Positions 3,238 to 54,638 of a DNA stretch of 54,955 bases are shown one piece after another. Source of the DNA: Catajapyx aquilonaris (taxonomy: Eukaryota); NCBI GenBank assembly GCA_000934665.2, contig KZ538674.1, positions 1 to 54,955 on the forward strand. The letters are read 5' to 3'. The first letter of the stretch is position 1. The number at the start of each line of letters is the position of its first letter. The position numbers and the translations under genes are program-made. The notes beneath the pieces were generated by a model. It was not told the DNA's origin. It did no database searches and worked only from the letters and a program-made list of their open reading frames with translations.

Positions 3238-4824
3238 AGAAAAGAAGGTCTGAGGATCCAGTCAGCTTCAAAAGTATCGATCATTCTTCCAAAACTGACT
3301 TCAGACTGATTTAGAGTGTCCTAATGGTTTTCCTGCAGCTTTTTGGACCTTGGCCCGTATGGACATTCCAGACAGGCCATGGGAAAAACTTTGGTAGGCA
3401 TAATTTCCTTTCGTCTTGGGCACCGTCCAAGAAATGAGTGCATATAGTAGGCGTGGTCAGGGATTCGTCTGACCTAGAATGTTGGAGCGTCTGAGCAAAA
3501 GGACACATTTGAATCAAGTTTAACAAATCAATATGTAGAGGTTAATTGCCCAAAAATTAAAAATTGCCTGAATACATTATATCCATTAATTTGTAAATGA
3601 TGAAAGTTATTGTTTCTGGCATATTAAGAATTTGTATGACCTTATGTGCCTGTACGAGTACTTGAGTTATTTTACTAATGAATGTTTCAGTTTTATGTGC
3701 ATGACATATTTGCCATTTTAATATGATAGTCTTTAGCATATTTTGTTTATGCTAGACCTCCCTCCGGTATAGATCATCATGATAGCAGATCAAATTTATT
3801 GATATTGGGGATGGTGCCATTAGGTTTAGGGTTATCAGACGTGAGGGTTGGATTTTGAAAGCTGTCTTTTTTTTTTCATCGCATCGGTGGTCAGGAATTA
3901 TTAATGTTAGTGTACGGATAAACCTGGTGACTGTGCTACACGGTCCAGTATGCATTAAGCTTATTATGAACTATCCCACTTTGCTGCATTGCAGATCTGT
4001 ATTGGAAAAATACCATGTTCAGCCAATTTTTCGATAAACCGAACTCTGATATGGGGTGGAAATAAGGTTGTGTTATTTAATGGCAAAAACTGGTTCATGA
4101 ATGTACTCGTTTTCACCTTGATAAAGCCTAATTGCAGCACTAACAAGTAAGTGCGCAGTAATAGATGTAGGTCAAGTGCTTTCCAGCCAGAAATTATACT
4201 GAAAACTATGAAGTTACTCCGAAGCTAATTTATTATATCCTCCCCATAGGCGGCATGTATCGATTATCCAGGAAAGTGCCTTCCGCCAGCTTAAATCGAC
4301 AATTATGAAACTGGTTTTACCCGTAAGAACTACCCGTGAAGTATCAAGTTTACAGGTGGCGAAGCTAACTGATGTCATTACCTGCCAGCTAGTTACGTGC
4401 ATCTCCGACTTTTCCAAACTGCCATTTATGATTGCTAGTTAACAAAAGCGTCAATTTCAATTTCACTCTCACAATGAATACGCATAGTTCCATATAATCA
4501 CATGATTGCTCAGCCTTTCTGTACTGGGTGTCTGGTCCATGTGTTTCCCAGTCTCTGTAACACCCGTTAGTAAATTCAGGGTACAAATCCGAGAGAGTTT
4601 CACGGACTTCATCAGTGCCGGAAATGTCGACTCCCAGATCACGTCCGGCACTTGAATTACAATACCACTCGACATCTGTATCAGGATCCCCTGGAGATCA
4701 TTTGTGAGGCTGTGCAAGTGGCTGCCAGGGCGAGTTCATGAAAATAAATAAGGCTCCATTGCATAACGGGGAGGTGCTGTATAAGGCTTGTGGTGGACGA
4801 AAGTTTGGGGGGGGGGGGGGGGGG

Positions 4825-5200
4825 NNNNNNNNNNNNNNNNNNNNNNNNNNNNNNNNNNNNNNNNNNNNNNNNNNNNNNNNNNNNNNNNNNNNNNNNNNNN
4901 NNNNNNNNNNNNNNNNNNNNNNNNNNNNNNNNNNNNNNNNNNNNNNNNNNNNNNNNNNNNNNNNNNNNNNNNNNNNNNNNNNNNNNNNNNNNNNNNNNNN
5001 NNNNNNNNNNNNNNNNNNNNNNNNNNNNNNNNNNNNNNNNNNNNNNNNNNNNNNNNNNNNNNNNNNNNNNNNNNNNNNNNNNNNNNNNNNNNNNNNNNNN
5101 NNNNNNNNNNNNNNNNNNNNNNNNNNNNNNNNNNNNNNNNNNNNNNNNNNNNNNNNNNNNNNNNNNNNNNNNNNNNNNNNNNNNNNNNNNNNNNNNNNNN
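4825..5200. other. Assembly gap (376 N) flanked by a G18 run and a C16 run
   Basis: N run; G tract at 4807-4824, C tract at 5201-5216. Confidence 0.99.
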
Positions 5201-6792
5201 CCCCCCCCCCCCCCCCAACCTCCTCTCCCATCAGCTCCCACCATTTTTTTTCTTTGGTTCCGGATTAAGTTTTTTTGCGAAAATATTTGAGGAAGAACTT
5301 GAGGCTTCGCCTTTATTAAAATGTCAGTAGCGATCAATTTGTTCCAATTAGTCTGGTTGGTGCAGTATTTGAATCAAAGGCTGGCTGTTCTGGAGGTAAT
5401 AGGAGCTTGAAAATTATTGTACTGCATTATGTTGAAAGAGGAAAAAAAAATCGTTAATTGTACAGGACATGTATTGGGACATGCACTAGAGAGCCTGAAT
5501 TGTAGAGTACTGAAAGCACTATAAATAAACCATTCCAGCCTGGAAATGTACATGGCGTTAAACCCTCCTCCTATTGGCATTTTTGTCATGTAAAAGGGCC
5601 ATACATGCATTACATGAATGGTCATTGGGATTTTTTTTAAAGCACTGCAATGTATTGTAAAGTTCACTTTAAAAAGATCGATATGCACAGTACGAAATAT
5701 AGAGTATGATCTAAATGCAGATTTTCCAGTAATATTCAAGCAATGTAACTAACGCACGCTCTTAATTAAACCAGGTTGAACCCTCCCAATGGCTATAAGA
5801 CCCCCCCAAACCCACCTTTCTGCCAATTTCACGAGCGTCTAGGTTCATGCTACATCCGTATAGGAACATAAATTAACCAGCCAGTAGTCCGCACTCTAAT
5901 TACTAGCGCACTTAACGTTCATTTTAAGGAGCCATCGGTTTCGCCCAGGAATTCGAATTCAGCTACTGCTATTAGCCCTGTTATAGAAAGACGATAGTGA
6001 AACTCACCGTGTGTGTTTTTTTATTTGGGTCGTAAAGCAGGCTCATAACGTACTTGCTCAGCTGGCCATTAGAAATGAGCGAATGAGTCTACATTCCTGG
6101 CCCTTTTTTTGGTTTGAAAAAAAGGGGGCGATAGCTGTTATACAGCTTGCCTATACTAGGAAAAGAAAAACGACGTTCCATCCAATATCCGACGTGAGGT
6201 GGAAGTTTGGGATAAATCCCTCCAGGCAACCAGAAAGGTGGGATAGGAAGAGAGAAGAGAGGGCTTTCCTACCAAAAAATGAGAACAAGTTCGATTTTTT
6301 TTTTTTTTGTTGAAGGTTTTCATACTTCTCTAGCCCTTTATTGTTCCGCAGGTTATCTGCAGTTATTGAAAAACAATGGTGCTTGAGTGTGGTGGGTGTT
6401 GGAAGTATATAGGACATAGTGAGTGAAAAACTATACAAACGAAATTTTGTGCAGGTCGGATCAAAATGAACAATTTTGCATATTGTGCGTCCCCTTGATT
6501 TTATCTGCTTTTTTTGAATGAATGACATTCGCAAACAAATGGGTAGCGTAATCCGTTGAGTTTAATCTGTGACAATACAATGCGGAATTCATTGATTTTG
6601 CTGTCCACCGGTTTGTATTGCTCCATATAAATTGCGGTGGAGTGCATCATACACCTTACTGGATGTAATTGCAGGACATTTTTTCCCCCGTAATTAAAAC
6701 GGCGGTCAGTGACACTGCTCTAAACCTGACCTCGCTCTATACAGAGAACGGATGAAAAGAGCTTGAAAAATTCGAGTGAAGTATGAGAGTTG

Positions 6793-17277: not shown

Positions 17278-18326
17278 GGTAATGAAAACTGATTTTTAAG
17301 TACATTTTGAGACACATAGGTCAGCAGCTAATACGAATATTTGAGTAGGCCAGTATCAAAATCATGGTGTGAAAATTGTCTTAATTCCTGGTTACAGGTG
17401 TCAGCTCAAAGTTAAATTCCTATTTCCAATATATGAAATATTTTCACAATTGGTTCATCTCCCATTGGGCAAGGTCACTTAATCTTTGAAGTGTTCTACC
17501 TGAAGCTGATAGCCTGGATTTGATAATGACCGACATGTCAGCTTTTCTTATTACTGATTCGTTAGTCTGATCAAGTAAGAAAATAGGGAATCAAACGTAA
17601 TTTCATTTAAAAAATTGACATCTAAAACTCAGTGAATTTTATCACCTTGTATTTAGATTGGGACGAAGGATTGGAATTCACACCATAACTTTCCAACTCA
17701 GGGCATGCACGACTTTGATAAACAGGGCATTTAGTCACACTTTACCTTAACGAGGGGTCATAAAATTTATTCACGTGCTACCCCCCCTCATACCTCCCAC
17801 TTTCTCGACCTCTTTGGTCTTGCAGTCTGGCATTCGGCATGAAATCGATATTAATTAAACCATGAGAAATCTCCAAGCACAACGTTCAAGACTTTAAGAG
17901 CTCGTTAATGGAAACGGTTGGAATTCTACTCAACTCAACTACGTGGTGCGGCTTATTATCGGTAAACGCATAAGTTAGAGCTGAAATAAGCTGCACACTA
18001 AAAAAAATTGCCAGAGGTATTGGCATTTGTCGTGCCGACCCTATTTTGAAGGGGGAGGGATTATTACTGGGGATACCGCACGTTGTTTTCCCTGAAATGT
18101 CGCATGGAGTTTTGGGAGTGGAATTTACCACGCCCATGCATTGCTGTGGCAGCATATTGCGGAAACGTGCAATAAAGTGCACTCACATCTCACACGTTCA
18201 GAGGGGTCGTCATAATTCAGGAGTATGGTGTAAGTCGTTGTATTACACGTCTGGAGAGGTATACATTGCCCGTGTATTTTCTGGAGATTGTCAACGTTAC
18301 GATAATCTCATTATGACTGAACATGT

Positions 18327-21494: not shown

Positions 21495-21735
21495 CAGTGT
21501 TGGACATTAATCCGTCATACTGCTTGCGACATTTTCTGTTGCGGCAGAGAAGTGACAGAGTGTGAGCCAGGTGTGAGCCGTGCGAGTAAGAAGAAGTAGG
21601 CCTTGAGTGACGTCACCGGCTGGGGGCAATGGCGAAATGGCTTGTCCCCAGCCAGTGACGTCACCCAAGGCCTGCCATTTCTTACTCTCACATCGGAAAA
21701 TGTCGCTAGCAGTACGGAATTAATGTCCAGCATTG
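21495..21735. mobile_element. Palindromic MITE family A, copy 3
   Basis: TA|CAGTGTTGGACATTAAT ... ATTAATGTCCAGCATTG|TA; same internal palindrome with two TGACGTCA; deletion in the right arm. Confidence 0.92.
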
Positions 21736-31100: not shown

Positions 31101-31329
31101 CAAATCTTGTTTGATGGAAGTCTTGATTTTAGCATCGAGGGACCTGAAATGGGACGAGGATTCGGTTATTGGGAGACTGGTTTCAAGCAAATGGATATTG
31201 GATTCGCTGGTTGCAATATGTCGATTGCCATTTAACGTCTGGAAGGTAGGTAGGCCAAGGTCGATTACATTGGAGAAATCAAGTTTAGTGTCTTTTTAGC
31301 GATATGAATAGACGACATCGGCTTGATAT

Positions 31330-31514
31330 TGTGACGACCCCGGGTCCGCCCCGCGCCCAACCCCCAAGAAAACCAAGGCCACCTCCTTAGTACACCTCCT
31401 TAGTACAGACTCTCTCGACTCTGGATACAACTTTACTCTCCCCTGGCCAAGGCCAGGGAAGCAGTGCGCATGCCCCGCCCACATCACATGACCTGTAGGT
31501 GGCGGGTCCTCATA
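31330..31514. mobile_element. Probable solo LTR (185 bp, Gypsy-like 4-bp TSD ATAT)
   Basis: Starts TGTGACGACCCCGGGT and ends GGGTCCTCATA (9/11 match to the GGGTCGTCACA inverted terminus). Flanked by ATAT at 31326-31329 and 31515-31518. Its first 16 nt are the exact reverse complement of 45769-45784, which abuts a tRNA-Lys PBS. Internal 13-bp tandem duplication CACCTCCTTAGTA. Confidence 0.62.
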
Positions 31515-43764: not shown

Positions 43765-45709
43765 CGTATAAAACAAGTGTGATTCGAGTCGACTTTTTCT
43801 CAATTTGGTTTAAAACCAGGAACCGGCTGCTTAATTAAAGCCAGCAGGAACGACCGTAAGTGGACATTTGAATTCATGCTTTCAGCAACTTGGCCCCGGA
43901 GAATCCCCCGCATATATTTGTGACATCCGTAAAATTGGTCTGACGGCTTTTAATGGGCTAGGAGACTACAGTGTAATACCGTGTCTTCTCGTTTCTACCT
44001 CGCTTTGTTGGACTCGGGCAGATATTGCTGATCTTTGCCTGGTGCTTTCTCCCTCAGATAATGAGAACCTAATGTAACCTAATGTAATCAGCGCTATCTC
44101 AGCATCGCACCCCCCCAAAAAATGAACCCCCGGCGCACTTAAAACGTGGCAACACAATTTCAGACATCGCATTTTACGCCTCTTTGATGCGGAAATTTGA
44201 GTAAGAGGATCGCAAACAGAATTTAGCATTTTCCAGAATAAACGCATATTTTTCAGTTTCTGTGTGAGTGGGGGTTCGCTCCTTGCACAACCCGGTTTTC
44301 TCCTCGGTTTTAGAGAGAAGCTTGGTCACGCCATGTGAATAGAAGCCTCCCCACCACCACCTACCAGGGGTCTGCTTTTAATGCACTTTCAATGTAATGC
44401 AGAGGAAAAGAGGAGCCTTGGGAAGTGCGATTTTAATAATGGATGGTTCCCCGGATTATATGTCTACAAGGCGGCCCCGAGGAATGATGAGAGTTATTTT
44501 TGCAAGCGCAGCTTTCCGGATGTACGGTACGTAAATATGGCCCACAGGAAAGTCGTAAACTGCGCTGTGGGAGAGATTACGCGATTTTTTTTTCCACCCT
44601 CTGATACATGAAATGTAATTTGCGAACGTCTCCACACTATCTAGTATGCACATTTCAAATTGGGTTGATAATATTTGGAGGAAATTAATTCCAGTTTTAG
44701 GCAAAAATAAATATTGGCTGACCTTAGTGCATATCTTCCCTAGTCTCTCTCTTTCTCATGGCTGCTCTTACCCTGCATATTAATGATGTCATTTGCAAGC
44801 ATCCGAACCGTGGCGACAAGAAAACCCTTTCGCCACCCTCAAACAAAAGGTTCTTTGTGCCAAAAGCGTGATGAGGATCACCTACCTTTTCTCTCTTCCT
44901 TACAACCCTTCTTCAAGCAGCGAAAAAGTCGATATCTACACAACGTGCACGAATTTATACACGTTGCCAAATGATTCGCGGGAGGAAAAAAATCTATCAT
45001 TCCCTAGGCAGGGTTACAATCTTGGAAATTGTTGGCCATGATGCTATTTTCTGCAGCCTCCCTGGCAATCTTTTGATGCTCACCAGCTTCCTTATAGTAT
45101 AGTATATCTGGAGGCTATCGATTATGGTCGTAAGTTGGATGTGGGCGAATCAAGTTTTGGCGGTGAAAAAGATACTATACGGGTATGACAGATTGTTGGC
45201 ATTTTGGATATACCTGGGGATCTTGCAAGTTGTGGCCTTTAGGCTTCTTGTGAGGCGATTTGTCACTAGGTCATTAGGTTCAGGAGACATTTTCACGCGG
45301 GGGGTGTTCCGTTTGGGCTGCCAAGACGCCAGGTCATTTGGTTCACAAGGCATTTTTGTTCCGGTCGGATCCTCCTGGTCTTTTGTCCCTGTCGGATGGG
45401 TTCCCATGGCTGCGCGTCGGGCGTTATTTTCTACCAGAACGTTCGCTGTTTGAAATGGAAACGTCTGATTAGCTGATTTGGATGTTCGTTTAAATTCCAT
45501 GCTCATGACAATTGTTGTCATGTTTCACGTCCAATTTGTCAATGTACTAGTAGCCATCTGCTGTGTTCGCATGCATCTTATCGATGCCACCGAGACATTT
45601 CACTGTCAACCGTGTTTGCAAAGTGATTACAATCATGTGCATGGATTAAGCCGAAATTTTCCGGGACACGATATGTCTCCATTAATTGCAAACCTCTTAC
45701 CACTACTTA

Positions 45710-45742
45710 GGGTCGTGGGTTCGGGCCCTAACCTGGGCCCTA
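45710..45742 (+). pseudogene. Degenerate tRNA-Lys(CTT) 3'-half copy (left arm of palindrome)
   Basis: GGGTCGTGGGTTCGGGCCCTAACCTGGGCCCTA versus the canonical animal tRNA-Lys(CTT) 3' end GGGTCGTGGGTTCGAGCCCCACGTTGGGCGCCA (recalled, not searched). Confidence 0.75.
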
Positions 45743-45743
45743 T

Positions 45744-45784
45744 TGTGACGACCCCAAGCACTGGGCGTACCCGGGGTCGTCACA
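45744..45784. mobile_element. 41-bp TG...CA LTR-terminus remnant
   Basis: TGTGACGACCCC-17 nt-GGGGTCGTCACA; same terminus as the element at 31330; followed after 1 nt by a PBS. Confidence 0.7.
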
Positions 45785-45785
45785 A

Positions 45786-45818
45786 TGGCGCCCAACGTGG
45801 GGCCCGAACCCACGACCC
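45786..45818 (-). pseudogene. tRNA-Lys(CTT) 3'-half copy including CCA (perfect 18-nt Lys1,2 primer-binding site plus 15-nt extension)
   Basis: + strand TGGCGCCCAACGTGGGGC is the canonical tRNA-Lys1,2 PBS and continues C-CGAACCCACGACCC, i.e. 32/33 identity to the reverse complement of the mature tRNA 3' end. The 5' half of the tRNA is absent, so this is not a functional tRNA gene. Confidence 0.9.
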
Positions 45819-48526
45819 AGAAATCTTGCAGTTAGTACCAACGATGTACAACGTGCTAATCCCCTTGGATTTTGATGGCTGTCCTGTCGACATTCGGACA
45901 ATTAAATGTCCTCTCCCACCCAACCTGGCTCATTTGCACGAGGTCAATTTCCTCCGGCCGCGGTTCGCGGCTGCGAAAAATCGTTTGAAACGGGTTTCAA
46001 ACAGCATTTTCCAACCGGCCACAGTGTGAGCATGTAAATTTAGTGGGGCAAGAATTCCGGGTGCGGACGTGCTTCTTGCGTCATTAATTATAACAACCGT
46101 GGAAAACAAACAGTTCCCCCCCAGTAGTAATTTGCCCATTGGGCATACCAACAATCGAGCAGTCTCTTTTTTAACGTATATGTTTAAATGATCTCGTTCC
46201 ATTGCAGGTGTAATCGCACACAATAGACCTCCGGGTAATTAGGCTCCAGGCTGTATTTAACCCCCCCTGCAAATATGTCGATTTATGTTATCCGGGGTGT
46301 AATGTCCCTTGCAGTTACTTCAGCTCGATATTCGGCCAATTACACGCCAAGTATTCCAGGGGAAAAAGGGTTCATTTTGAGACCTCTTTTTAGCGTGCAA
46401 GAAAAAAAAAATCGAATCGCATTTTAGGCGTTGCTCAGATAATCGCATCAAAGTAATCGTTTCAAAAAAAAAAAAAAAAAAAAAATCCTCTGGGCGTAAA
46501 GTCAGCTGTGTTAGAAGTGATTACAGTGGTGGTGGGCAAAAGCACGTCTAATCAAAATCCGGGGGTAGCACAGGGACTAGAGGGAGACCCGGAGGTGTCC
46601 GGATGATGTAACAAAGTTGTACTTACCTGCAGTACTCATGAGACTTGTACTGCGGTTGGATGATTTATCAGGTTTTTTGGAGCTTAGGGGTAGGGGGGAA
46701 GGTGAGAAATTCGGCAATGTAGCTGATTGGACCAGAACTGACGGATTTTGCAATTGGCTGACCATCCTGTTGATTGGACCACTTTTCAGATGATCTGAAC
46801 TGTAATACTGGTTCCAGATTGGCTTAAACAAGGTGAAGACATTACAACATAGATTTTGCCGAACTATGCAATAAAAATGCAAATGACCCCGAGGAATGAC
46901 CTTTTTTTTGATCCAGAACACCATTTTGGCCCGGTTGGTGGAAAAGTTATTAAGTGTAAATGCGGCTTATTTTCTCGGCCACCTTTTATCGCGCAGGAGA
47001 CCCCCTAGGTTTATATCTGCCCTCAGCTTGCCCTGCAGAAAAGGCTAATTATCCTACCATGATAATGAACTTTCCTTGGGCGCAATTAAGGCTTATTATT
47101 AATCGAGGCCAAGCAATAAAAGAGGAGAGTTCCGTCATGAAACTTGGCAAAAAAAAATTTGTTGGAGAGGACTTGCTCTTTGCAAAGGAAAAAAAAAGAA
47201 GAAGTACTGCATAAGTTTTGCCTGGAATAGAACTCTGGAAGGAAACAGACGAGTCTTCGTTTGCCGGCAAGAAAACCTAATTGCTTTGCAGATAACAAGG
47301 AGACGGAACACTTATGCGCAAATTAGTAGTAAAAGTTTTCAAGCCTCGCTTCATTTTCGGAGACGCATTTGTCAGCCGTTTACGGGGGAAAGTAATTAAA
47401 TAAACACGGATTAGAGAATAAATCTTCCGGAATTGGCGTTCCAAACCATTGTTTTTGCTACTTTTTTAAGGGGGGGGGAGGAAAAAAAGGAAGGTTACTT
47501 TTCTGGGGACTGGTGTGAGGAATTTGGAAGTAATGAAATAGGACATGTTTGTGCCTTTAAAAATCCAAAAAAAGTTTGTTATTCACTGTTGACAATTTTT
47601 TTTCGGTTGAAAATTTGCAATGTCGTACTAACACTGATGGTGAATATTTTAATATTCGTTCCGCATACCAGCGTTAATGAGGCATATGTTTCACGCCAGG
47701 CTCGTATCGTATTACCATTTACGTCATTGGCAGCACTATGTTTTTGGCAGGTTGTTGTGGTCCACAATACTAATTGAGTAAGCTGTAAGTGAAACCCCAC
47801 GCAAATGTTGAACGCTGTTTAAAAACATTTATATTTACCTTCAAACACTATGAGGACAAAATAAAGAAAATGGCATCTGGCACACACCTTTTTTTTTGCG
47901 ATTGTTTCGTATTGTTCAATTTGACAATCGTATATAAGAAAAAGGGCTGGAGATAAGAGGGTGGGGTTCGGAGAAGAAGACATCGACTATTCTGGGCAGG
48001 TTGAAAAAGTTTTCTCGCCTGTCAGAATAACAGAAATGCCTCTCTCCTCAGCCTCTCGCCATCAAAATGTGAGATTCCAAGAACAGAAAAGGCTGCAAAA
48101 AAACCGAACCTGAAGGAGGTTGAACCAGAGGAGTATATAAAAAAGGAGGGTACGACTGATTGATGATCTCCTTATTCTTGCGGTGCTGGTACAGTACTTT
48201 CCTTCAAGTTCATTCTGCGCCCCATTTCCTTCAGCGTGTCTCTTCGGAATTCTTTTAGGGGGTTGCCTTTCACATATTGGGACCGATCCAGACCTTGGCA
48301 GGAATGAATGAGGAAGCCACTCGCTTTGGTTGCAATCCGACATGTACACAGTCACCGCCTTTCAATTATTCGAGGGACTGATGTCCCTCTGAGCTTATGT
48401 GGACAACTAGGGAACGTGTGGTAGGTGTGGTGCTGAATAGTTAAATGTCTCGCGAGAAGGATACCAACATGTGTGGTATAACTCATTGTCGGCTCACCGT
48501 ATAGCTCTAGTTGGCGATATGTTATA

Positions 48527-48761
48527 CAGTGTTGGTCATACTGCTTGCGACATCTGTTGCGGCAGAAGTGCATATCGAAGTGTGAGCCGTGCGAGTAAAA
48601 GGTAAAAGGTAAAAGTGTGAGTAAAAGGTAAATCGTAAAAGTGCGAGTGACGTCACCCAAAGGCTACCATTTCTTACTCGCACGGCTCTATCACTTCGAT
48701 ATGCACGTCTGCCGCATCAGAAAATGTCGCTAGCTGTATGACGGAATTAATGCCCAGCACT
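48527..48761. mobile_element. Palindromic MITE family A, copy 4 (centre deleted and replaced by repetitive filler)
   Basis: TA|CAGTGTTGG-TCATACTGCTTGCGACAT ... AATGTCGCTAGCTGTATGACGGAATTAATGCCCAGCACT; the central hairpin is missing. Confidence 0.88.
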
Positions 48762-50792: not shown

Positions 50793-51158
50793 TATGAAAG
50801 ACTTTACCATAGGATTTGGTATAGTTACCTTTGGAATAACCTACCTATACATATACATACATTTATTATGTTTGCATACCTGTAACATGGAGTATATTGC
50901 ATGTGCATGAAGTCCCTATTTTCTCTCTCGATCCCCGATTTCTCCCTCCCCGATCTCTCCCTCGAACGATGCTACGTCCGGGGTTCTTGCTTTCCTTCCT
51001 TTCGCCTCTGCCGCCAAGGATGACCTCGGAGGTCAAGTCCAATGTGCTAAAAACCTTCCCACTTAAAAACTACCCCTAATGATCCCCCTGGGGCATACGT
51101 CGAGGCCTCCGTATTGATTTGCATCGGGAACGCATCGACATATACGTCTTGAAATATA

Positions 51159-52092
51159 CTTGCTCTGATCTGAAAATATTGGGACACCCCCAAAAAATGG
51201 AGTGGTGGGGTTATACACAGGATGTGATAAAAAGTTTCCATTAAGATTATCTGGACTTTAGAATGGATAATTATGAATAGTAACAATTGAGCTAGGAGGA
51301 TACCAAATTTGAAGTTCATTTGACAGTTAACAACTGAAATAAATACGATTATACCTTGGACAGTGAATTTCTGTGGGGTCTGGTAAAAATTGCTGCCACT
51401 CTGTTTATTTCTTACTTAGCGGGATGTAAATGTTGATAATGAACCTGAGGGGCCGCACAAACCCAAAAACAATTATGACATTAATTACAAAAAATCTAGC
51501 ACAAAATTAAAAAATATTTATCATGGCTTGCAGATGTGCCCTTTTCTGTGCATTTTTGAATTAAGGAATATTTAAAGCCATTTTACTTTAATTGCAATGA
51601 AATTTTTTATCATAGCACATTGGACTGAGTTCTAGATAAACAATACTATCACATTTTAATTTATTAATAAATAACACCGTTAAATGTGGTACAGCCAAGT
51701 GTATCAATTTCTGAAAAAATCCACTTGCGATAAATATTTTTAAATTTTGTGCTAGATTTTTTGTAATTAATGTCATAACTGTTTTTGGGTTTGTGCGGCC
51801 CCTCAGGTTCATTATCAACATTTACATCCCGCTAAGTAAGAAATAAACAGAGTGGCAGCAATTTTTACCAGACCCCACAGAAATTCACTGTCCAAGGTAT
51901 AATCGTATTTATTTCAGTTGTTAACTGTCAAATGAACTTCAAATTTGGTATCCTCCTAGCTCAATTGTTACTATTCATAATTATCCATTCTAAAGTCCAG
52001 ATAATCTTAATGGAGACTTTTTATCACATCCTGTGTATAACCCCACCACTCCATTTTTTGGGGGTGTCCCAATATTTTCAGATCAGGGCAAG
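51159..52092. mobile_element. 934-bp foldback-type non-autonomous DNA transposon with about 364-bp TIRs
   Basis: Arms 51159-51522 and 51729-52092 are about 99% reverse-complementary (4 mismatches seen by eye), with a 206-bp AT-rich spacer, flanked by (TA)TA on both sides; explains the mirrored ORFs 51047..51319(-) and 51932..52129(+). Confidence 0.95.
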
Positions 52093-52203
52093 TATATTAG
52101 ATATATTTGTAGGACACTTCCACAGTTAGATTTTTAGTTATTCGTATGCTGTAGTAATAGTAATTGGAAACAATAATAATGAAAAACTTTGGCTTATTGT
52201 TTT

Positions 52204-53527: not shown

Positions 53528-53585
53528 GGACAAGCGAATCCCGAGAAAACCTGCTCGAAAGTTATTGAACTATTTTTTTGCTTAA

Positions 53586-54087
53586 AGGGACACTCCACTC
53601 AAAATACAAGTTGATCTGTAAAAATCTGGCAAAAAATCCTGATTCCGGTGATACCATCCGTTTATCTATGAGACGAACGGTAATGTCAGGGGAAGAGACG
53701 GAAGTCGGAAAAAATTCGAGGTCTGTTCGAGAGTGGCGCCGCCTGACCACCTGGCCAAGTTAGGCGACGTTGGATAGTAGCGCCGCCCTTCCCAACGGCG
53801 ACTTGGATAAGTTGCCTGCGGGTATGGGGATCCGTGGGGATCTGGTTGTGTCCGAAGCCAACTTCCCCTAGTGCCCGTTGGGAAGGGCGGCGCTACTATC
53901 CAACGTCGCCTAACTTGGCCAGGTGGCCAGGCGGCGCCACTCTCGAACAGACCTCGAATTTTTTCCGACTTTCGTCTCTTCCCCTGACATTACCGTTCGT
54001 CTCAGAGATAAACGGATGGTATCACCGGAATCAGGATTTTTTGTCTGATTTTTACAGATCAACTTGTATTTTGAGTGGAGTGTCCCT
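53586..54087. mobile_element. 502-bp palindromic non-autonomous transposon, Kolobok-like (TTAA TSD, AGG...CCT ends)
   Basis: TTAA|AGGGACACTCCACTCAAAATACAAG ... CTTGTATTTTGAGTGGAGTGTCCCT|TTAA; about 210-bp near-perfect arms, then degenerate arms toward the centre. Purine (RR) termini with TTAA fit Kolobok rather than piggyBac (YY). Confidence 0.92.
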
Positions 54088-54638
54088 TTAATATTGTAAA
54101 CCTGACGCTCCATTCACGAGCAAAACAGTCCCTCACAAAAAAAAACCACAAGCGATTTACGAAAAGTCCTTAGGAACAGACGGCAGTGTTTTACAACCGT
54201 GCCTTAAAAATAAAAAAAGAACGTTGGCGTAATCCAAAGCAGACGGGTAGGACGCATCTCTAGAAAACCGTTCCTAACGAACCATCTCCCAGTTGGTGGG
54301 CGGGACATAGATTATGCACATTACGAGCTATTCGAGCGCAGGAGGAAACCCTTTTTTTTTGCTGTCAGACTCTTTACTTTATGGCTCCAAAGTCCGAAAG
54401 AGAAGCTCCTGACGTGTAAAACTCCCTTCGGATTAAGTATCCGGATTACTTCAGGATCACTTGAGGGTAAAGCAGGGTGGTTAGGGAATAAAATTTCCTT
54501 TTTTGCGGGCGGCCATTTGCAATCCAGGCGCCCGATGCGTAATTTCGAGACGTGGATGGGCGAGCACCGGGCGCTTTGGCGCTTTGGCACCCTATCATCG
54601 CGGATCCGGCACGCATGCGCTCTCTGCGCTACGCCNAA

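Follow-up and report, generated by a model that had tools for sequence, protein, structure and literature searches.

The systems closest to the structure reported here come from work on how reverse transcriptase (RT) copies its primer tRNA. According to PMC8599865, the modified base m1A58 halts plus-strand strong-stop synthesis, and m5Um54 brings about another stop, one base ahead of position 54; without these stops, the complementary DNA (cDNA) becomes non-complementary once it has been transferred and reportedly does not integrate. Two other reports state that m1A58 is a partial stop only, past which RT can reach A37 (PMC1785368), and that m1A causes arrest together with misincorporation, the signal in an m1A-G context being T or G, with low C (PMC4787781). 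PMC6088434 describes self-primed strong-stop DNA, in which the nascent strand folds on itself and is extended towards the primer, giving a dead-end hairpin. We analyzed a 109-bp palindrome at positions 45710-45818 of contig KZ538674.1 (GCA_000934665.2) of Catajapyx aquilonaris, within a stretch of 54,955 nt that is called the window throughout (positions 1 to 54,955, forward strand). The middle of this palindrome is formed by the end of a long terminal repeat (LTR), its outer parts by tRNA-Lys(CTT) sequence in inverted orientation, and all bases but 7 could be assigned to LTR end, spacer, or tRNA-Lys sequence. The reading that we prefer, with confidence about evenly balanced between belief and doubt, is that it represents a hairpin-type dead-end by-product of a resident tRNA-Lys(CTT)-primed LTR family, captured without integrase, in which the primer-binding site (PBS) of one arm was templated by the tRNA and that of the other arm by a different template.

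The palindrome shares several properties with described systems and departs from each of them. Described tRNA read-through DNA and retroviral clones with tRNA between LTRs have in common with the palindrome an LTR end joined to a tRNA complement longer than 18 nt and an apparent misreading at position 58. However, their arrangement is direct and the viral DNA was unintegrated or cloned, whereas the palindrome is inverted, retains 12-29 nt of LTR, and is a single-copy chromosomal locus. The order predicted for self-primed strong-stop DNA, tRNA - U5' - turn - U5 - PBS, is also the order of the palindrome. That product was found with HIV-1, in vitro or in virions, and depends on a stable cTAR hairpin, while the turn of the palindrome is weak and its arms differ in the PBS; since the arms differ there, self-copying alone does not fit. 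Ohshima and Okada reportedly proposed that short interspersed nuclear elements (SINEs) of the tRNA-Lys type arose from strong-stop DNA with its primer tRNA, and the palindrome resembles such a hybrid in that tRNA-Lys with CCA is joined to U5-derived sequence and kept in a genome. But SINEs are multi-copy and non-palindromic, and they contain a whole tRNA with RNA polymerase III (pol III) boxes and a tail of the long interspersed nuclear element type, whereas the palindrome is single copy and contains tRNA positions 44-76 only. In yeast, Ty1 retrotransposon cDNA is captured at chromosomal double-strand breaks. The palindrome would resemble such captured cDNA as a partial copy that entered by a non-integrase route, without target duplication or TG..CA ends, although break capture is suggested here solely by the absence of integration hallmarks. 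Finally, elements with a long inherited PBS, such as the Pao-like locus L016 of the survey presented below, also possess more than 18 nt of contiguous complement beside an LTR, but L016 has a normal 5' LTR-PBS-gag order with neither inversion nor truncation. Among the titles and abstracts of the matches listed from one open-access library, we found no prior description of a genomic palindrome made of an LTR end and primer tRNA.

A repeat search of the window reported one inverted pair at the site, 45710-45755 and 45773-45818, with 46-nt arms that are 87% complementary and separated by 17 nt (45756-45762 plus 45763-45772); by direct comparison, 40 of the 46 positions were identical. For so good an inverted pair the chance expectation in the whole window was about 8e-12. 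As single-stranded DNA, the 109 bp gave a fold of -52.2 kcal/mol (z = -11.5), which none of 200 shuffles equalled. The TG..CA core occupies 45744-45784, and a spacing of 1 nt was found on each side of it, T at 45743 and A at 45785, the former being the complement of the latter. The preliminary description, made from the letters of the window, had listed the palindrome, the 40/46 arms, the TG..CA core, the 1-nt spacing, the perfect PBS followed by 15 nt, and a position-58 change common to both arms, and our recount agreed with it on all of these points.

The core contains a genuine LTR terminus. The terminal motif TGTGACGACCCC occurs four times in the window at no more than one mismatch, versus 0.13 expected. 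A solo LTR of 185 bp, belonging to the same LTR family as the core, lies on the minus strand at 31330-31514; it reads TGTGACGACCCC...GGGTCCTCATA on the plus strand and has ATAT on each side, a 4-bp target duplication, with its U5 end (minus-strand reading) at 31330. Positions 31328-31351 matched the reverse complement of 45763-45786 at 23 of 24 sites. On the plus strand, 45763-45784, terminating in ...GGGGTCGTCACA, matched the reverse complement of the solo-LTR terminus at 21 of 22 sites. Because this match is to the terminus of a solo LTR that has a target duplication, we identified 45763-45784 as the U5 3' end of the resident LTR family. The inverted copy of the terminal 12 nt (TGTGACGACCCC) at 45744-45755, also plus strand, was recognized by the repeat and by the motif. 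Between the two lies a centre piece of 7 nt without strand assignment (45756-45762), of uncertain origin, which could be more U5 (3/7 versus the solo LTR) or filler. Thus, in the 41-bp TG...CA core put forward originally, the LTR terminus was genuine, but only 12 nt are duplicated in inverted orientation and 22 nt (45763-45784) are recognizably derived from an LTR. The plus-strand junction with the PBS has the expected form: an LTR terminus in CA, the 1-nt spacer A at 45785, and an 18/18 PBS including the complement of CCA. A complete LTR with TG..CA ends and target-site duplication is absent at the palindrome, where only 22-29 nt of LTR are retained. The outer ends of the palindrome read GGGTCG...CGACCC rather than TG..CA, no target-site duplication was found in the flanks (...ctactta / agaaatc...), and the hallmarks of integrase are therefore absent. 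No Pfam family was found in the 30 open reading frames (ORFs) of at least 120 aa in the window, and no retroelement coding sequence lies nearby. The family LTR end plus PBS had no match in the viral contig collection, and neither a 26-mer with the C variant nor a 20-mer had a match in the prokaryote genome collection. Elsewhere in the window, GGGGTCGTCATA at 18203-18214 is one mismatch away from the LTR terminus motif and may be another LTR end; BLAST found no similarity between this region and the LTR at 31330.

The tRNA content of the arms was determined against a 76-nt tRNA-Lys(CTT), including CCA, which was called by ARAGORN at a public contig locus (L004) and is not from the host; tRNA positions are numbered along this sequence. 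The right arm (45786-45818) agreed with the tRNA complement at 32 of 33 positions. It consists of a perfect 18-nt PBS with the CCA complement (45786-45803, plus strand), complementary to tRNA positions 59-76 and without another match in the window when up to three mismatches are allowed, followed by a 15-nt extension (45804-45818, plus strand) that is the complement of positions 58-44. The sole mismatch is the first base of this extension, PBS+1, where C stands opposite A58 instead of the expected T (14/15). The left arm (45710-45742, plus strand) follows the sense strand of tRNA positions 44-76 at 26 of 33 positions, with CCA degenerated to CTA, and it carries the same change at position 58. 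Positions 44-58 are identical between the two arms. The palindrome therefore reads G at tRNA position 58, where 14 of 14 tRNA-gene-like loci of other organisms have A. In tRNA-Lys the next base is G59, which would correspond to the m1A-G context, and T58 is read in the comparison loci. On both sides, tRNA homology ends at position 44, and nothing beyond chance was found in the flanks, where 809 and 1870 of 2000 shuffles scored as well. Only the 3' part of the tRNA (positions 44-76) is present, a pol III A box is lacking, and ARAGORN found no tRNA gene in the window. Considering that CCA is included and that the PBS spacing lies beside a genuine LTR terminus, the tRNA-like segments are products of reverse transcription and not tRNA genes, as had been proposed before. 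There is good support for the derivation of both arms from tRNA, for the identity of the core as LTR sequence, and for an origin by reverse transcription. The 15-nt complement past the 18-nt PBS, mismatched solely at position 58, fits read-through of m1A58.

The integrity and copy number of the palindrome were investigated with Logan contigs from three runs of one sample, aligned over 45300-46300. This sample may be the source of the assembly; its reads exclude a scaffolding error but are not independent evidence. The five runs found for the stretch include no RNA run. A contig of 2107 nt spans 45300-45801 with 0 differences at depths of 28, 28, and 17 in the three runs, passing through unique left flank, left arm, centre, and 29 nt of the right arm. 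The remainder is bridged by a 41-nt contig (45773-45813) and another at 45784-46300. These observations bear on the possibility of an inverted chimera from assembly or library preparation, which we consider barely credible. Palindromes are a classic class of artefact, and the runs that cover this one may be the assembly's own source; yet a de Bruijn contig at normal depth crosses most of the structure, two contigs bridge the rest, and no path or joint skipping the palindrome was reported among the contigs over 45300-46300. The reads thus contain the inversion.

The same contigs separate the family from the locus. The left arm and both flanks showed single-copy contig depth only, while the summed depth in the bin 45776-45809 was 459, about 16-fold. 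Thus, the U5 end plus PBS belongs to a repeated family and the whole palindrome is unique, which agrees with one of the two options left by the preliminary description, a one-off aberrant cDNA, and not with the other, a tiny repeated hybrid element. Other contigs matched 45763-45800, 45774-45813, 45776-45807, 45778-45810, and 45780-45816 with 0-3 differences and then continued into unrelated sequence. Several members of the family agree with the right arm past the 18-nt PBS, in one case through 45816 with 0 differences, and several contigs cease to match at 45807, which corresponds to position 55, one base ahead of T54. A small mobile or functional hairpin, either a hybrid of tRNA and LTR resembling a SINE or a miniature inverted-repeat transposable element (MITE), or a locus like that of a microRNA (miRNA), with small RNAs that would match the family PBS, was judged highly improbable. 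The fold is very stable and Rfam returned weak matches to miRNA precursors at the palindrome, but these were far below their gathering thresholds: MIR5084 with 38.5 bits (E = 2e-5) versus 110, MIR6450 with 23.6 versus 70, and mir-1343 with 20.3 versus 51. Rfam gives no match at gathering level anywhere in the window, the left arm is present in a single copy, a target duplication is missing, and the tRNA part lacks the A box. As single candidates, a miRNA precursor was rejected on these thresholds, a MITE or foldback element because of the missing target duplication and the single copy, and a tRNA-derived SINE because of the single-copy left arm and flanks, the restriction to tRNA 44-76, and the absence of an ARAGORN call. 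The palindrome as a single locus gives no indication of function.

The differences between the arms were the most informative property. All six lie at tRNA positions 63, 65, 66, 67, 73, and 75, inside the canonical 18-nt PBS, while the arms agree throughout the 15-nt extension, at the spacer, and over the 12 nt of U5. Confinement of six differences to one given 18-nt segment has P = 0.002, and relative to the tRNA all six are on the left arm (P = 0.03). Only for the PBS does reverse transcription use two templates: the plus strand of this segment is copied from the tRNA, and its minus strand from the genomic RNA. Given this property of the PBS, divergence limited to it makes the arms look like differently templated versions rather than copies of each other. 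Simple fold-back, one of the routes suggested initially, predicts identical arms, contrary to the six differences. Moreover, a differing PBS beside an identical extension suggests that the extension with C at PBS+1 was common to both templates and already belonged to the element; in agreement, C at PBS+1 is not private to the locus, because the contig matching 45780-45816 with 0 differences lies elsewhere. The extension past m1A58 was thus probably carried by the element lineage before the palindrome formed. With an identical extension in both arms and differences in the PBS only, it is probable that the palindrome-forming event did not itself involve read-through. The proposal of m1A58 read-through is supported in so far as the complement runs past the PBS, position 58 is its sole mismatch there, and 3 of 22 LTR-like loci of the survey are parallels; its placement in the palindrome-forming event is probably incorrect.

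These findings also bear on the idea of a single event, in which RT read the primer tRNA past m1A58 to position 44 with misincorporation at 58, fold-back or head-to-head joining followed, and the differences between the arms arose later. This is unlikely in our estimation. The position-58 change and the end at position 44 are common to both arms, the survey often shows read-through with variable end points, between tRNA positions 47 and 1 in its 22 LTR-like loci, and the ends of the host contig matches at 45807, 45810, 45813, and 45816 resemble such variable end points, 45807 being position 55, before the second stop. Nevertheless, later random mutation is unlikely to confine six differences to the PBS or to one arm, given the probabilities above, and the C at PBS+1 found in another contig is not expected of an event private to this locus.

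In the two-template model that we prefer, the stem would derive from a duplex of U5 end, spacer, PBS, and 15-nt tRNA-complementary leader, the two strands of which would have been joined on the U5 side through the 17-nt turn to give a hairpin. After unfolding and copying, this hairpin would yield two inverted arms, one with the perfect, tRNA-templated PBS and the other with a PBS copied from a different template, in the simplest case the RNA of the element itself. The arms would then differ only inside the 18-nt PBS because two templates served for it. Integrase would have played no part in its entry into the chromosome, for which capture at a break is the most likely route, and the 15-nt stretch beyond the PBS would first have arisen, earlier in the lineage, when RT read the primer tRNA past m1A58 with misincorporation. 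The hairpin intermediate, the two templates, the break capture, and the timing of the read-through are steps that we infer. A bolder version, which we put forward only as a tentative possibility, regards the arms as the two strands of an RT heteroduplex that was closed into a hairpin on the U5 side and then copied; the palindrome would then record in nature the heteroduplex at the PBS expected from the strand-transfer model, and over-long complements would form a genomic fossil record.

Several observations weigh against the two-template model. The arms end at the 7-mer GGGTCGT, which is common to tRNA 44-50 and to the U5 end, and the last 7 nt of the extension (ACGACCC) are complementary to the GGGTCGT of the U5 end; probably, a homology-guided step outside the proposed model set the arm boundary. 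The folds that could prime a hairpin were not better than shuffles: we tried a putative 30-nt nascent strand, a U5/leader stem around the PBS, and the 17-nt centre, and 142, 42, and 33 of 200 shuffles did as well in these tests, 33 being the count for the centre. The model also demands a source whose PBS is at odds with the tRNA at 6 of its 18 positions, and poor priming is expected from such a site. No second copy of the left-arm variant PBS was found in the contigs, where no other contig aligned to the left arm with at least 90% similarity, and within the window it matched only itself at up to three mismatches. The sharing of the extension is based on contig alignments of 32-40 nt with 0-3 differences that are known by coordinates only, and run X5, from a second sample, covers 46026-46262 only, outside the palindrome. 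Besides, plain fold-back copying is not sufficient, given that the two arms deviate from exact complementarity, and the left flank resembles the inverted centre at 7 of 10 positions, an unexplained likeness from a post hoc comparison. A weak hint about the turn comes from the 17-nt centre, the ends of which allow 6 end-anchored Watson-Crick or G.T pairs when the minus strand is considered, against 0 for the plus strand. As to the 7-mer itself, GGGTCGT was found at 14 sites of the window versus 3.7 expected, 4 of them in the palindrome and 2 at LTR-like ends (18204 and 31334); the remaining sites have no obvious LTR or tRNA context.

The occurrence of over-long tRNA-Lys complements beside LTRs was surveyed with a pattern made of the PBS and 8 further tRNA-complementary bases, with PBS+1 left free. 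Because 26 bases were required, the scan is silent on the frequency of read-through relative to normal PBSs. It yielded 45 loci (44 from metagenomes and 1 from a viral contig), of which two duplicates were dropped (L041 = L025 and L040 = L024). The 43 loci kept were sorted by the sequence upstream of the CCA complement into 14 tRNA-gene-like, 22 LTR-like, and 7 unclear loci. The LTR-like rule was an ...ACA end plus 0-3 nt, for which about 3 of 45 are expected by chance, so some of the full-length cases may be genes. The 14 gene-like loci have A/T-rich conserved 3' flanks, some are in tRNA gene clusters, and in all of them CCA follows in the DNA, for which the pattern had selected; among these tRNA-Lys(CTT) loci with encoded CCA are L010, L005, and L029, the last with a tRNA-Asn and three tRNA-Lys. 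We took these 14 to be tRNA genes that happen to precede CCA. The statement, made earlier, that eukaryotic tRNA genes do not encode CCA thus holds as a rule, to which these loci are exceptions.

In the 22 LTR-like loci, the tRNA-Lys complement was 30-76 nt long and ended at tRNA positions 47, 45, 28, 26, 23, 22, 20, 19, 17, 14, 13 (three loci), 8 (two), 5, 4, 3, and 1 (four). Loci with a common LTR end differed in length, namely 60, 72, and 74 nt in L009, L031, and L043, and 55 and 76 nt in L027 and L039; such varied lengths within LTR-end families point to repeated events. A mismatch at position 58 was found in 3 of these 22 loci (L037, L043, and L045), T>A in all three, in 1 of the 7 unclear loci, and in none of the 14 gene-like loci. 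With a background of 19 mismatches in 790 cells at freely varying positions, the excess at position 58 in the LTR-like loci has P = 0.015.

The architectures of these loci were diverse and show that resolution was aberrant. Tandem arrangements of LTR, tRNA-Lys complement (54-64 nt), and LTR were seen in L034 (1-1774), L009 (1-2856), and L025 (1-3026), and they look like integrated products of primer read-through with a subsequent end-to-end template switch, or like circle junctions. L009 reads LTR - tRNA'60 - LTR (tRNA' denoting the complement). L034 reads LTR - A - tRNA' (62-64 nt, TG being common at the junction) - LTR - A - 18-nt PBS - unrelated leader, an additional LTR-tRNA' thus preceding an otherwise normal element. 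In L043 (1281-1852), a 74-nt tRNA' beside the LTR end, with the position-58 mismatch, runs straight into a pol RNase H ORF, and the element appears to be deleted from PBS to pol at the tRNA junction. L008 (1-1774) contains a 600-bp palindrome with two facing inverted LTRs, arranged LTR - tRNA'69 - 16 nt - inverted LTR. L045 (800-1768), a retrovirus record of the viral collection with a gamma-type TLV_coat env, reads in its 3' part LTR - 12 nt - LTR - GT - tRNA'64 (position 58 misread) - LTR without its first ~22 nt. None of the 22 loci has the arrangement of the window, with tRNA outside and the LTR end in the middle.

One further locus, L016, in which a 30-nt complement is followed by a Pao-type gag (DUF1759, E = 1e-39), bears on an origin by ordinary rearrangement, in which an integrated copy with an inherited long PBS was later cut down through deletions and inverted duplication while DNA was replicated or repaired, without any RT intermediate. 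Elements with a long inherited PBS thus exist, and U5-PBS copies are numerous in the host genome. But both arms stop exactly at the last tRNA-complementary base, and neither leader nor LTR body nor target duplication accompanies them; replication fold-back would give long arms and arbitrary end points; and the flanks are single copy, with the differences confined to the PBS. We therefore consider such a rearrangement quite unlikely.

What is known of read-through, self-priming, and aberrant strand transfer comes mainly from in vitro and cell-culture work on a few retroviruses, and these processes are usually described as non-integrating dead ends. The palindrome and the 22 loci suggest that such products do reach germlines, as inverted, tandem LTR-tRNA-LTR, and pol-fused architectures, and that they keep traces of the tRNA template at the level of single bases, including the recurrent mismatch at the position of m1A58. 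If the fossil-record view is true, the 22 loci, from unrelated eukaryote-derived contigs, would reveal the places at which RT stops or misreads on primer tRNAs that carry modifications, such as m1A58 and the site ahead of T54. If confirmed genome-wide, they would provide a sequence signature for the failure rate of plus-strand transfer, for past modification of primer tRNA in the germline, and for the origins of tRNA/LTR hybrids.

The window contains other repeated structures. Inverted repeats called at 4786-5235 were discarded as a gap artefact on the N run at 4825-5200. Two near-perfect palindromes have a foldback- or MITE-like look, one at 51153-52098 (370-nt arms, 99% identity, 206-nt spacer) and the other at 53582-54091 (240-nt arms, 95%, 30-nt spacer). 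Finally, a repeat family with the palindromic motif GTGACGTCAC occurs in both orientations at 250-500, 2570-2850, 21514-21690, and 48627-48761 (families D1-D4, pairs I14-I25) and probably represents an element of the short interspersed or MITE-like kind.

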